A stretch of 64,000 nucleotides of DNA from Phycisphaerales bacterium (GCA_022446885.1 JAKVBU010000007.1:20081-84080); one strand, 5' to 3'. Counted from the stretch's first letter, positions 10,936-36,105 are shown. Translations and numbers: made by a program. Notes: generated by a model from the letters alone, not told the origin.

Positions 10936-11772
10936 ATGTCCGACAGCACCGAAACGAATGATCCATCCAGCGCCTCACCGCTGGCCGAGGTCGCTGATCT
11001 TGTCCGCCAAGGCGATGCCGCGGCTGCGTTGAGCGGCCTCAAGGAACGCATTCGTAAGGAACCAGGCAACGCCGACCTCAGGTTGTCGCTTGCTCAACTG
11101 CAGGCGATCATGGGCGACTGGGACAAGGCAATGGCGGCCGCGGACACGGCCTCCACGCTCGACACCGAACGAGGCCTGCTCTGTCAGCAGTGGAAGTTGC
11201 AGATCGCAGCCGAGCAGACTCGAGCCGAGGTGTTCGCGGGCGAGCGTACCGCGATCGTCATGGGCGAACCCGAGCCGTGGATCGCGGGCATGCAAGATGC
11301 CCTCAGGCTCGACGGCGAAGGGCAGTCCCAAGCTGCCGATGATGCCCGCCGCGCTGCTCTGGAGAACGCGACCGCACGCGGTGGCACCATCAATGGCACC
11401 CCCTTCGAGTGGCTCTGTGATGCTGATGAGCGCATCGGGCCCTGCTTTGAGGCCATCATCAACGGGCGATACGCATGGGTCCCGCAGGGTGCCGTCACCG
11501 CCGTCACGGTGAAGCAGCCATCCGAGCTCATCGACCTCGTCTGGGTCGAAACGGTGATGCGATTCACCAACGGCGGCGAAACAGCGGCGCTGACACCGGT
11601 CCGCTACCCCGGCAGCACCAACAGCGACGATCAACGCATCGTGCTGGGCCGATTGACCACCTTCGAGGCAACCGCAGGCGGAACCAACATCGGGTTCGGG
11701 CAGAGACTGTTGGCGACCGACGCCGACGACTACCCCCTGCTCCAGATTCAGTCCATCGAATTCAACGCCTGA
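10936..11772 (+). CDS. tagJ: T6SS accessory protein TagJ (ImpE/SciE family)
   Basis: TPR-like N-terminus plus blocks typical of the ImpE family: AEVFAGERTAIVMGEPEPW, FEWLCDADERIGPCFEAIINGRYAWVP, GQRLLATDADDYPLLQIQSIEF. Confidence 0.9.
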   Translation: MSDSTETNDPSSASPLAEVADLVRQGDAAAALSGLKERIRKEPGNADLRLSLAQLQAIMGDWDKAMAAADTASTLDTERGLLCQQWKLQIAAEQTRAEVFAGERTAIVMGEPEPWIAGMQDALRLDGEGQSQAADDARRAALENATARGGTINGTPFEWLCDADERIGPCFEAIINGRYAWVPQGAVTAVTVKQPSELIDLVWVETVMRFTNGGETAALTPVRYPGSTNSDDQRIVLGRLTTFEATAGGTNIGFGQRLLATDADDYPLLQIQSIEFNA

Positions 11773-11785
11773 TCAGGACAAGACG

Positions 11786-14605
11786 ATGACGCTTCAGATC
11801 CGACGTACTGCGCTATTCTCTCGACTCGACCCACTTGCCTACAAGGCCTTGGAAGGTGCCACAACGCTCGCCAAGTTGCGGGGCAACCCACAGGTTGAGA
11901 TCGTCCACTGGTTCAACCAGATCCTGAATGAGCAAGACAGTGACATCCACCGCATCATTCGGGCCTTTGGCATCGATGCCGGCCGCCTCGCCTCCGACGT
12001 GACGGCTGCCATGGAGGCACTTCCGGGTGGCTCGTCTGAGCTCAAAGACCTCTCCGGATCGGTTGACCAACTTGTGCGAGAAGCATGGCTGCAAGCCTCG
12101 CTGGCCTTTGGCGGACTGGCTATTCGAACCGGCCACCTGCTTTTGGCACTCTGCGGCGAAGAAGCCCTGCAGCCAGAGATGGATGGGCTCTCCGCTCAGC
12201 TCAAGCAGATCGACGTGTTCAAACTTGGCGAGGAGTTCGACTCGCTTGTTGAAGGATCGCCTGAGACGGCCCAAGCAAATGCCGCGTCGGTTGGCGACGG
12301 CGATGCCATGCCAGGTGAGGCCAGCGGTGCGCTCGCTCCAGCCCAGTTGGGCAAGCAGGAAGCCCTGAAGCGATTTACGACGGATCTCACCCAGCAAGCA
12401 CGCGATGGCGAACTGGATCCCATCGAAGGGCGAGACACCGAGATTCGTCAGGCGATCGACATTCTGCTTCGCCGAAGGCAAAACAACCCGATCCTCGTGG
12501 GCGAGGCCGGCGTGGGCAAGACAGCCGTGGTCGAGGGGCTCGCCCAGCGCATTGTGCGTGGTGACGTACCCCCGTCCGTGCAAGGCGTGCGGCTCTTGAC
12601 GCTGGATATCGGCCTGCTGCAGGCGGGCGCCAGCATGAAGGGTGAGTTTGAAAACCGCCTGCGGCAAGTCATCGAGGAGGTCCATGCCTCCCCTGATCCG
12701 ATCATCCTCTTTGTTGACGAAGCCCACACCTTGCTGGGCGCCGGCGGCCAGCAGGGCACCGGCGATGCCGCGAACCTGCTCAAGCCGGCACTGGCTCGCG
12801 GCACCCTGCGAACCGTGGCCGCGACGACTTGGGACGAGTACAAGAAGTACATCGAGAAGGACCCGGCCCTCACTCGACGCTTCCAGACGATTCTCGTCGA
12901 AGAGCCGTCGATCGAGAAGGCTCAGCTCATGATGCGAGGGGTCGCTACGGCGCTTTCGAACCACCACGGCGTGCTCATCACCGAGGAAGGCATCGATGCA
13001 TCGGTGGAACTCAGCGCCCGCTACCTGCAGGCCCGTCAATTGCCAGACAAGTCCGTCAGCGTGCTGGATACCGCCTGCGCCCGCGTCGCTGTGACCCAGC
13101 ATGCGGTGCCCGCCGAGGTAGACGACCTCCGCAACGCCCTGCGTGCCTTGGATGTCGAACAGAGGCTGGTCGATCGCGAATTGGCATTGGGCATTGAAAA
13201 TCATCGGGCCGAGGAGATTGGGCCTGAGATCGAGTCCGCCAAGGCTCAACTTGCCGAGGCCGAAGCGCGATACGAAGAAGAGATCGGTATCGCCAGAGAG
13301 ATCATGGAGATCCGCGCCAAGCTCCTCAAGGGCATTGATGCGGATGACGATGCCGACGCACCTCAGAGTGGCGATGACGCCGAGGCTGCCTCTGATTCTG
13401 GCGAGCAGAAAGAGGACGCTGGCACCGATGGCGCCCCAGACACCGACACTGCAAAGGCCACCGAGGACTCGGGCGATGCCCCCGCGCCCGCCGCTGATGA
13501 AGAGGAAGCCATCGACGCCGATGCCCTTCGTGTCTCACTGGCCGAGTTGCAGACGAAGTTGGAAGAAGCCCAGGCTGAAGTGCCCATGGTGCTCCCCACT
13601 GTCGATGGCGACGCCGTCGCCGCAGTGATCGGTGACTGGACGGGCATCCCGGTTGGCCGCATGGTCGCTGATCAGGTGCAGAGCGCCCTCGACCTGCCCG
13701 ATCTGCTTGGCAAGCGAATCATCGGACAGGACCATGCCCTGCAGGAAGTGTCCGCCCGAATTCAAACCGCCAAGGCGGGGCTGGAAGACCCCAGCAAGCC
13801 ATCGGGCGTGTTCATGCTGGTTGGGCCATCTGGTGTGGGTAAGACCGAAACCGCCCTTTCACTGGCCGAGGTCCTCTACGGCGGCGAGCAGGGGCTCATC
13901 ACCATCAACATGAGTGAGTTCCAAGAGGCCCACACGGTCTCCACGCTCAAAGGGGCCCCTCCCGGATACGTGGGATACGGCGAAGGTGGCGTGCTCACCG
14001 AGGCTGTTCGACGAAAGCCATACTCGGTGGTGCTGCTCGACGAGATGGAGAAGGCCCACAAAGATGTGCATCAGGTCTTCTTTCAGGTCTTCGACAAGGG
14101 CTGGATGGAGGACGGCGAGGGAAGACGCATCGACTTCAGAAACACCGTCATCATCATGACCAGCAATGTGGCCACTGATGAGATCGTGCAATTGGTCGAA
14201 GATCCGGATCTGGCGCCCCCCGCTGCCGAACTCGTCAAGAGCATCAAACCCGCGATGCTCAAGACCTTCCCACCGGCGCTGCTGGGCCGATGCATCATCG
14301 TGCCCTATCTGCCACTGGGCGACAGCGTGCTGGAGAAGATCATCGGCCTGAAGATCGCCAAAATCGCCAAGCGATTGCTCAACGAGAAGGGCATCACGCT
14401 CGAGTACGACGACGCAGTGACGAAGTTCGTCATGGACCGCTGTGAAGATGCTGGCTCAGGCGCCCGAATGATCGACGCCATTCTCACCAACAGCCTGCTG
14501 CCCAACGTGAGCCAGAGATTGCTGGAGCGGCTGCTCGAGGGCACGCCTACCACGACGGCGAAGATCTCCGCCGGAGAGGGTGAATTGAAGGTCGAATTGT
14601 CCTGA
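11786..14605 (+). CDS. clpV: T6SS AAA+ ATPase ClpV (TssH)
   Basis: ClpV-type N-domain and two AAA modules: GEAGVGKTAVVEGLA / ILFVDEAHTL and GPSGVGKTETALSLA / VVLLDEMEKAH. 939 aa with an acidic insert in the middle domain. Confidence 0.93.
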   Translation: MTLQIRRTALFSRLDPLAYKALEGATTLAKLRGNPQVEIVHWFNQILNEQDSDIHRIIRAFGIDAGRLASDVTAAMEALPGGSSELKDLSGSVDQLVREAWLQASLAFGGLAIRTGHLLLALCGEEALQPEMDGLSAQLKQIDVFKLGEEFDSLVEGSPETAQANAASVGDGDAMPGEASGALAPAQLGKQEALKRFTTDLTQQARDGELDPIEGRDTEIRQAIDILLRRRQNNPILVGEAGVGKTAVVEGLAQRIVRGDVPPSVQGVRLLTLDIGLLQAGASMKGEFENRLRQVIEEVHASPDPIILFVDEAHTLLGAGGQQGTGDAANLLKPALARGTLRTVAATTWDEYKKYIEKDPALTRRFQTILVEEPSIEKAQLMMRGVATALSNHHGVLITEEGIDASVELSARYLQARQLPDKSVSVLDTACARVAVTQHAVPAEVDDLRNALRALDVEQRLVDRELALGIENHRAEEIGPEIESAKAQLAEAEARYEEEIGIAREIMEIRAKLLKGIDADDDADAPQSGDDAEAASDSGEQKEDAGTDGAPDTDTAKATEDSGDAPAPAADEEEAIDADALRVSLAELQTKLEEAQAEVPMVLPTVDGDAVAAVIGDWTGIPVGRMVADQVQSALDLPDLLGKRIIGQDHALQEVSARIQTAKAGLEDPSKPSGVFMLVGPSGVGKTETALSLAEVLYGGEQGLITINMSEFQEAHTVSTLKGAPPGYVGYGEGGVLTEAVRRKPYSVVLLDEMEKAHKDVHQVFFQVFDKGWMEDGEGRRIDFRNTVIIMTSNVATDEIVQLVEDPDLAPPAAELVKSIKPAMLKTFPPALLGRCIIVPYLPLGDSVLEKIIGLKIAKIAKRLLNEKGITLEYDDAVTKFVMDRCEDAGSGARMIDAILTNSLLPNVSQRLLERLLEGTPTTTAKISAGEGELKVELS

Positions 14606-35748: not shown

Positions 35749-35781
35749 TTCAACGACTGATTCCACAAAGGAGCAACGACC

Positions 35782-36105
35782 ATGGGCGTAACCAGCAATG
35801 CTGAAGGTGATGCGATCATGACCTGCCCCCCACAGGTCACGGTGATCAACGACACGACGGGCATGCAGATCGTCGGCCTCGAGGGCCAGACCATCGAGAT
35901 CATCGCCGACGAGACCGTCATGTCGATCACGCCCGAGGTGATTGAACTGGAGGCGCCGGACATCAGCCTCTCCAGTGAGGGTGCCGTCGAGGTCGAAAGC
36001 TCCGACGTTGATGTCACGACCGGCGGACTGGAGGTTGAGACCGGTGACCTGAGCCTCTCGGCCGGTGCCGTCGAAGCCGAAGCCGGGCTCTTCACAGTGA
36101 TGTGA
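35782..36105 (+). CDS. 107-aa highly acidic protein with beta-strand-like repeats, no Lys/Arg/His
   Basis: AAGGAG Shine-Dalgarno 9 nt upstream of the ATG. The sequence EIIADETVMSITPEVIELEAPDISLSSEGAVEVESSDVDVTTGGLEVETGDLSLSAGAVEAEAG has alternating hydrophobic/acidic periodicity. Confidence 0.6.
   Translation: MGVTSNAEGDAIMTCPPQVTVINDTTGMQIVGLEGQTIEIIADETVMSITPEVIELEAPDISLSSEGAVEVESSDVDVTTGGLEVETGDLSLSAGAVEAEAGLFTVM

Follow-up and report, generated by a model that had tools for sequence, protein, structure and literature searches.

A predicted H1-like type VI secretion locus with a divided VgrG spike in an uncultured Phycisphaerae bacterium

A 64,000-nucleotide stretch of DNA from a Phycisphaerales bacterium (GCA_022446885.1 JAKVBU010000007.1:20081-84080; hereafter the window, with positions counted from its first letter) carries at 10936-36105 a run of genes resembling a type VI secretion system (T6SS). 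The locus raises the question of whether a full and working apparatus is encoded there, to which T6SS group it belongs, and whether it is native to its host. The results make it highly probable that the locus encodes a complete, probably functional contractile system of subtype T6SS-i, derived from group 3 and carried chromosomally by an uncultured member of the Phycisphaerae.

Gene content and relation to the H1 system

Open reading frames (ORFs) were listed, and those of the locus were searched against the Pfam and NCBIfam profile libraries. The results revealed one contiguous locus organised in five transcription units, with tssA divergent from tssB and the PAAR-tssJKLM unit divergent from vgrG (lengths in amino acids, aa):

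10936..11772, plus strand, unit 1: tagJ, ImpE family with a tetratricopeptide-repeat N-terminus (Pfam ImpE PF07024, E 2e-36; 34-43% identity to TagJ of H1-like relatives)
11786..14605, plus strand, unit 1: clpV (tssH), sheath-recycling AAA+ ATPase (Pfam AAA_2, E 2e-54; AAA_lid_9, ClpB_D2-small, Clp_N)
14710..15162, minus strand, unit 2: DUF3467 gene, last of the tssBC-hcp-tssEFG operon (Pfam PF11950, E 6e-9)
15201..16247, minus strand, unit 2: tssG (Pfam T6SS_TssG PF06996, E 2e-67)
16211..18058, minus strand, unit 2: tssF (Pfam T6SS_TssF PF05947, E 7e-142, full length)
18072..18515, minus strand, unit 2: tssE, gp25-like (Pfam GPW_gp25 PF04965, E 5e-14)
18632..19144, minus strand, unit 2: hcp (tssD), tube protein (Pfam T6SS_HCP PF05638, E 7e-29)
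19254..20750, minus strand, unit 2: tssC, large sheath subunit of H1/group-3 type (Pfam VipB PF05943, E 1e-129; VipB_2 PF18945, E 3e-46)
20774..21295, minus strand, unit 2: tssB, small sheath subunit (Pfam T6SS_VipA PF05591, E 4e-54)
21326..22429, plus strand, unit 3: tssA, short form, 334-367 aa (Pfam ImpA_N, E 7e-29; NCBIfam TIGR03363, 161.4 bits, cut-off 160.85)
22506..27467, minus strand, unit 4: tssM, 1653 aa (Pfam IcmF-related_N PF14331, E 1e-28, the sole Pfam match)
27464..28246, minus strand, unit 4: tssL (Pfam DotU, E 8e-18; the L054 homologue has 262 aa)
28239..29639, minus strand, unit 4: tssK (Pfam T6SS_VasE PF05936, E 4e-56; NCBIfam TIGR03353, 204.6 bits, cut-off 100)
29660..30298, minus strand, unit 4: tssJ-like outer-membrane lipoprotein with lipobox FIMTGC (predicted fold; no profile match)
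30929..31201, minus strand, unit 4: PAAR spike-tip protein, 90 aa, first gene of its unit (Pfam PAAR_motif PF05488, E 1.5e-10)
31372..32577, plus strand, unit 5: gp27-like hub, the N-terminal half of vgrG as a gene of its own (Pfam Phage_GPD, E 1e-27)
32577..34583, plus strand, unit 5: gp5-like protein, 668 aa, the C-terminal half of vgrG as a gene of its own (weak DUF2345 and Francisella-VgrG matches, residues 261-370)
34585..35748, plus strand, unit 5: DUF6931 protein (Pfam PF22011, E 1e-11)
35782..36105, plus strand, unit 5: 107-aa acidic beta-helix-like protein, which closes each vgrG module (family profile against Gp5 and VgrG C-termini)

An initial annotation, made by a model from the sequence, had named all of these Tss components and about five transcription units; the searches backed every assignment, that of the lipoprotein by its fold, and recovered five units. 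Its PAAR gene is present but is the one at 30929-31201 on the minus strand, and the 107-aa gene that ends the locus does not match PAAR. The many overlaps of 1-8 nt that it described hold for tssK/tssL (8 nt), tssL/tssM (4 nt) and the two vgrG halves (1 nt), but tssF and tssG overlap by 37 nt. Translation probably starts, behind Shine-Dalgarno-like sites, at 28246 for tssL (ATG preceded by GAGGAG), 15162 for the DUF3467 gene (ATG preceded by AAGGAGG), 21425 for tssA (ATG), 31372 for the gp27-like gene and 30298 for the lipoprotein. Homology of TssA to its relatives begins at about residue 34-40.

All 13 core components, together with PAAR and TagJ, are predicted to be encoded, with TssJ counted by fold only. 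The T6SS-i traits found comprise a TssB and TssC sheath, Hcp, a split VgrG with PAAR, a TssE/F/G/K baseplate whose four Pfam matches exceed their cut-offs, and TssA with ClpV. For the membrane complex, TssL and the N-terminal domain of TssM were recognised by Pfam and TssJ by fold only, while PF06761 and PF06744 of TssM were undetected. Judged by the established functions of these families, the TssJ-like lipoprotein, TssL and TssM would form a complex spanning the envelope, and TssK, TssE, TssF and TssG would build the baseplate around the spike. TagJ, in H1-type systems an accessory partner of the short TssA and of TssB, may together with the short TssA prime and stabilise assembly, TssB and TssC would polymerise round the Hcp tube and then contract, and ClpV would recycle the sheath. 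A sheath and gp25-, gp27- and gp5-like parts are also common to phage tails and extracellular contractile injection systems (eCIS), so that a particle of that kind, not anchored in a cell, would share them. However, TssJ-like, TssL, TssM, TssK, TssA, ClpV and TagJ proteins are all present, the sheath has the two subunits TssB and TssC, and the locus gave no match to any tape-measure, tail-fibre or lysis family, which leaves an eCIS or phage-tail-like particle scarcely credible.

The T6SS group was assessed with TssC. Against solved structures, window TssC scored 733 bits with P. aeruginosa TssC1 (5n8n_B), 499 with 9n4v, 371 with the M. xanthus protein, 355 with VipB and 255 with IglB. In a maximum-likelihood tree, the window sequence formed a clade with those of three metagenome contigs, L054, L057 and L056 (support 100/100), inside a radiation that also held H1 TssC1, many Planctomycetota, Desulfospira, a Victivallales metagenome-assembled genome (MAG), Succinatimonas and two alphaproteobacterial MAGs, with a distant outgroup of VipB and M. 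xanthus TssC. The references in this tree were four solved structures, with no i2, i4 or i5 representatives. Relatives within and beyond the phylum keep the H1 gene order tssA-B-C-hcp-tagJ-E-F-G-clpV. H1 belongs to group 3, of which a short TssA with TagJ is a hallmark (PMC7896307; see PMC4239648), and the window locus has both, with TssA of 334-367 aa. Because the structural scores, the TssC tree, the gene order of the relatives and the short TssA with TagJ agree, the locus appears to be a derivative of T6SS-i group 3.

Compared with the H1-T6SS of P. aeruginosa, the locus shares a TssC closest to TssC1, the short TssA with TagJ, ClpV and the tssJ-K-L-M arm. It differs in that the colinear tssA-B-C-hcp-tagJ-E-F-G-clpV operon is broken up: tssA is inverted, tagJ-clpV is moved to a convergent unit and inverted, and a DUF3467 gene is inserted after tssG. 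Its TssM of 1653 aa has a periplasmic part with no Pfam TssM domain, its TssJ-like protein is missed by the Pfam profile, its VgrG is split into two genes, and the DUF3467, DUF6931 and 107-aa genes are extra. The Fha/PpkA/PppA pathway and TagF, which are traits of group-3 clusters, were not found at the locus, which is without fha, ppkA, pppA, tagF and tagQRST. In keeping with the regulator absences already noted by the initial annotation, no FHA, Pkinase, PP2C, TagF or sigma-54 activator match was obtained among the locus ORFs. TagF (PF09867) also had no match in the whole genome, in a search whose controls were silent too, and the sigma-54 promoter consensus was not enriched (33 matches against 38 expected).

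Other H1-like clusters in Planctomycetota and Phycisphaerae (for example G115, G189 and G081) resemble the window in TssC (63-71% identity), TagJ, a short TssA and a long TssM (1373-1550 aa). They differ in having the colinear H1 order and baseplate and membrane proteins only 20-35% identical to those of the window, and their surroundings showed no split-vgrG/DUF6931 module. TssJ is detectable by Pfam in G115 and G039, unlike in the window, and the G081 cluster has an apparent FHA-type gene upstream of tssJ, judged from sequence only.

Host genome and conservation of the locus

The window is part of a 255-kb contig; the genome to which this contig belongs measures 2.87 Mb, is 97% complete and encodes only one TssC. 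Relatives of its AtpD reach 95% identity, and all named ones (82-88%) are labelled Phycisphaerales, Phycisphaerae, Planctomycetota, Planctomycetes or Planctomycetaceae bacterium, supporting assignment of the host to Phycisphaerae/Phycisphaerales in the Planctomycetota and not to the proteobacteria. DUF1559 (PF07596), a marker of the Planctomycetes-Verrucomicrobia-Chlamydiae (PVC) group, had no match in the genome, and the controls of that search were also silent. The planctomycete-like background proposed by the initial annotation was therefore supported by the named AtpD relatives. A proteobacterial contig or failing profiles, which that annotation had named as fatal to it, were not what we found: the profiles support the Tss calls and AtpD is planctomycete.

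Around the locus, the ORFs scanned encode housekeeping proteins (AtpD, oligopeptidase A, CorA, NuoG, GH15 and PyrB), with no integrase or transposase among them; the window has no tRNA, and its G+C content is flat at 0.60-0.64. These absences agree with the annotated flanks. A NuoG-like gene (36113-37966, plus strand) begins 7 nt past the last gene of the vgrG module on the same strand, and a NuoF-like gene lies about 13 kb from it, at 49563-50909. In related contigs, vgrG modules adjoin NuoG in L051 and L052, with the opposite relative orientation in L052; L052 also has GH15 and PyrB, and the neighbouring genes of both contigs are 69-79% identical to those of the window. Because the modules of L051 and L052 adjoin these same genes, the locus is best regarded as chromosomal and inherited within its lineage.

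A standard proteobacterial cluster acquired by recent horizontal transfer, or a mis-binned proteobacterial contig, could account for two observations: TssC is 67-69% identical to that of Succinatimonas and two Alphaproteobacteria MAGs, as close as most Planctomycetota matches, and neither the same-genus genome nor 17 of the 18 other genomes of the family carry a T6SS. Against this stand the 255-kb contig whose flanking housekeeping genes have Phycisphaerales as best named relatives, the uniform G+C content, the lack of tRNA in the window and of integrase or transposase in the scanned flanks, and the pairing of the same vgrG modules with NuoG, GH15 and PyrB in related contigs. Moreover, apart from TssB, TssC and ClpV, identity to those proteobacterial loci is only 20-35%. 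Recent transfer or mis-binning is thus extremely unlikely.

The wider distribution of T6SS was examined with TssC, which was found in 97 of 401 genomes (24%) and 69 of 288 genera of a phylum sample, and in 70 of 401 genomes (17%) and 51 of 275 genera of a class sample, at no more than 67% identity to the window. Among near relatives, the sampled same-genus genome had no TssC and 1 of 18 other same-family genomes had one. T6SS is not rare in the phylum and is sporadic close to the host genome. T6SS genes have been reported in Rhodopirellula baltica in 2009 (PMC2660368) and 2017 (PMC5394234) and in freshwater Planctomycetes in 2019 (PMC6461901); literature searches turned up no functional study of a planctomycete T6SS. 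The background is less unusual than the initial annotation implied: T6SS is fairly common in the phylum, and its genes have been on record there since 2009.

The window architecture recurs in a small, strongly supported sub-lineage that, besides the window, lies on four metagenome contigs: it is seen on L054/L055 and on L057, which shares a contig with L051, while L056 has a further rearranged form. The synteny comparison suggested by the initial annotation thus gave the same rearranged order in L054/L055 and L057. The shared features are PAAR, lipoprotein, tssK, tssL and long tssM; an inverted tssA; tssB-C-hcp-E-F-G followed by DUF3467; an inverted clpV; and one to three modules of gp27-like, gp5-like, DUF6931 and ~108-aa genes. 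Identities to L054 and L057 were as follows:

TssB, 96%
TssC, 93%
ClpV, 81%
DUF3467, 80-82%
TssK, 78-80%
TssF, 77-80%
TssJ-like, 75-78%
TssM, 67-68%
TssA, 65-66%

Spike-module proteins were much more diverged (27-64%) than these core proteins (65-96%). The ratio of nonsynonymous to synonymous substitution rates (dN/dS) was 0.03-0.17 for core genes, values that are approximate since dS is near saturation; TssM had 0.13. In the spike module, the ratio was 0.15 (gp27-like), 0.19 (gp5-like) and 0.29 (DUF6931). The core genes are under purifying selection. The DUF3467 gene occupies the same position after tssG in L054 and L057 at 80-86% identity and is constrained like TssC (dN/dS 0.045); it is a lineage-specific conserved accessory member of the sheath/baseplate operon.

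The uniform G+C content, the shared NuoG/GH15/PyrB neighbourhood and the low core dN/dS (0.03-0.17) agree with the earlier description of the locus as resident; this holds for one sub-lineage only, because the sampled genome of the same genus has no T6SS, nor do 17 of the 18 others sampled in the family.

The divided spike and its candidate cargo

The gp27-like and gp5-like halves of VgrG are separate ORFs in every module seen (window, L051, L052, L053 and C98, a further contig of the same genome), across 27-61% identity; the division is not a sequencing artefact. As in phage T4, the break falls where the gp27 and gp5 domains meet. On the window halves, NCBIfam VgrG models stay under their cut-offs. 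The gp5-like protein, for which only 4 homologues were found, comprises an OB-fold region, a beta-helix and a variable C-terminal extension of ~290 aa; residues 251-300, in the beta-helix region, are best conserved and the C-terminal half is variable. The 107-aa protein is 43-66% identical across modules, and its family profile matches the Gp5 C-terminus (9vzk_q, E 4.7e-4) and the VgrG beta-helix (6u9e, E 0.024). PAAR lies at the same position in L054, L057 and L051.

This arrangement resembles phage T4 (gp27, gp5, gp5.4) in that hub and needle are separate polypeptides, with the division between the same two domains, and in having a small tip protein (PAAR as the gp5.4 analogue). It differs in that the gp5-like protein of the window has no lysozyme domain and carries a long variable C-terminal extension, in the T6SS context, and in the extra stand-alone beta-helix protein. 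Split vgrG loci have been mentioned for some Acinetobacter strains (PMC6838775), likewise with N- and C-terminal VgrG genes apart in a T6SS-i organism. There the split is sporadic among strains, whereas in the window lineage it occurs in every module, across 27-61% identity and under purifying selection.

DUF6931 follows the gp5-like gene in all modules at only 27-39% identity and is the fastest-evolving gene (dN/dS 0.29). PDB profile searches with the gp5-like protein and DUF6931 returned nothing informative. In a preprint on Pseudovibrio, the DUF6931 gene that follows vgrG is regarded as coding for a putative immunity protein (bioRxiv 10.64898/2026.06.19.733351). We infer that the best cargo candidate is the C-terminal extension of the gp5-like protein, and DUF6931 would then be its immunity protein or chaperone; these are the fastest-evolving parts of the locus, the pattern expected of a cargo and its partner.

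In a rather unlikely but still substantial alternative, the T6SS works with cargo encoded elsewhere or carried by Hcp or PAAR, and DUF6931 and the 107-aa protein are structural spike or adaptor parts. The likeness of the 107-aa protein to the gp5/VgrG beta-helix and its fair conservation (43-66%) would fit such a role, as would the adjacency of DUF6931 to vgrG in Pseudovibrio and the second PAAR of the genome on contig C65. Set against it are the rapid evolution of the gp5-like C-terminus and DUF6931, as expected for cargo and partner, and the mostly housekeeping-like surroundings of the C98 and C65 loci, in which reading of the translations disclosed no obvious toxin.

The C98 locus (C98:91971-96725, minus strand) is an orphan spike module, with gp27-like, gp5-like, DUF6931 and small acidic proteins 49%, 39%, 37% and 66% identical to those of the window. 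The C65 gene (C65:200659-200940, minus strand) encodes a second stand-alone PAAR, 39% identical to that of the locus and with no fused toxin domain, among ORFs whose translations resemble housekeeping proteins (DEAD-box helicase, UbiB-like kinase, PurL-like). Three tandem spike modules are found at L057 201-6156 plus L051 7406-13968, with two adjacent gp27-like genes and a first gene of 316 aa with no Pfam match, which suggests duplication and turnover of modules at this site.

Envelope components and minor features

The lipoprotein in the tssJ slot had no Pfam or NCBIfam match; homologues lie upstream of tssK in L054, L056, L057 and Succinatimonas. An AlphaFold (AF2) model built from a 5-sequence alignment reached a predicted local distance difference test score (pLDDT) of 69.7, and its top 10 PDB fold matches were all TssJ (E 1e-4 to 1.5e-3, probability 1.00), including Serratia Lip 4a1r, SciN 3rx9, TssJ1 3zhn and the TssJ chains of 4y7o and 6ixh; transthyretins came next. 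On this predicted fold we accept the protein as a TssJ-fold lipoprotein.

TssM consists of a canonical cytoplasmic NTPase domain, a non-canonical periplasmic part of ~1200 aa and a low-complexity tail; in hhalign comparison with canonical TssM, only the cytoplasmic residues 105-427 align. Nine full-length relatives, on the contigs that share the window architecture, have 1513-1627 aa and 43-69% identity. Searched exhaustively as a profile, the periplasmic part returned 227 representative clusters, mostly of 1400-1750 aa, and the seven homologues checked from it, five of them ~1160-1210 aa, matched PF14331 only. The long TssM thus appears to represent a broad alternative class and not a peculiarity of the host genome. 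H1-like relatives likewise have a long TssM of 1366-1550 aa. The idea that the long form is an adaptation to the planctomycete periplasm was weakened by the 1366-aa TssM of Desulfospira, which belongs to an H1-like cluster.

Several observations weigh against a complete, working T6SS-i. The TssJ call comes from a medium-confidence model of five sequences, and profile-profile comparison with canonical TssJ gave a probability of 42%. The ~1200-aa periplasmic part of TssM showed no detectable homology to canonical domains by Pfam, PDB sequence search or hhalign, and an AF2 model of residues 1000-1536 had a pLDDT of 37; a canonical TssJ-TssM tip is therefore putative here. The Walker A motif of TssM, GGPGSGRST (window 27000-27100, residues ~141-150), has arginine for the canonical lysine (GSGKT), and G146, R147 and S148 are invariant in 10 of 10 long-TssM family members, so NTP hydrolysis may be altered or lost. 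Finally, as the initial annotation had noted for Rhs and known toxins, no Rhs, toxin-family, effector or immunity domain was recognised among the locus ORFs by Pfam or NCBIfam.

A decaying or non-functional remnant might be expected to look like this, with VgrG in two frames, TssM devoid of Pfam periplasmic domains and GSGRST in place of GSGKT. However, no ORF is disrupted; relatives down to 43% TssM identity retain the split, the long TssM and the lysine-to-arginine change; dN/dS is low for TssM, the gp27-like and the gp5-like genes; and no frameshifts or stops were seen in the relatives. We therefore consider a remnant very unlikely and retain the interpretation of a complete, probably functional T6SS-i.

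The sub-lineage differs from the textbook system in its T4-style spike genes with PAAR and an extra beta-helix protein, its divergent TssM periplasm/TssJ-like module, DUF3467, and the lack of H1 phosphorylation and TagF genes at the locus. Tentatively, and with less than even probability, the locus may represent an undescribed T6SS-i sub-lineage. It would combine a T4-style spike (gp27-like hub, gp5-like needle with a variable cargo domain, stand-alone beta-helix protein and PAAR), DUF3467 as a new assembly or baseplate part, and the gp5-like C-terminus with DUF6931 as a new effector/immunity (or chaperone) family. The TssM with its ~1000-1200-aa non-Pfam periplasmic part and the TssJ-like protein would then form an alternative envelope module, seemingly widespread in H1-like systems outside the well-studied Proteobacteria.

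The locus is not a new kind of machine but a lineage-specific variant of the H1-type T6SS; it leaves the overall picture of T6SS unchanged and by itself opens no long-standing question. It does provide a compact, complete planctomycete T6SS on one contig, with conserved relatives for comparison, and it raises the questions of whether a VgrG spike is built from separate gp27-like and gp5-like chains, what roles DUF3467, DUF6931 and the small beta-helix protein play, and how a non-canonical TssM periplasm with a TssJ-like partner spans the planctomycete envelope.

Minor features were observed between the genes and in the flanks. An Rfam search of the window gave no match. The hcp-tssE gap contains, just downstream of hcp, a perfect hairpin with a 15-bp stem and 11 G-C pairs (18563-18595); by attenuation within the operon or by stabilising the message, it may raise hcp transcript levels above those of the baseplate genes. 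The ~630 bp that separate PAAR from the tssJ-like gene (30299-30928) hold no ORF with a family match, and a similar gap is present in L054 and L057; a promoter inside the unit or a small gene missed by annotation could lie there. In the flank, a secreted protein at 44052-45704 (plus strand) has a weak C-terminal GC-type dockerin match (NCBIfam NF041540, 30.8 bits, above the 29-bit cut-off), and another at 41423-43561 (minus strand) matches the same model at its C-terminus with 23.4 bits, below the cut-off. Freshwater Phycisphaerae have been reported to carry non-cellulosomal cohesin and dockerin modules (PMC6461901).

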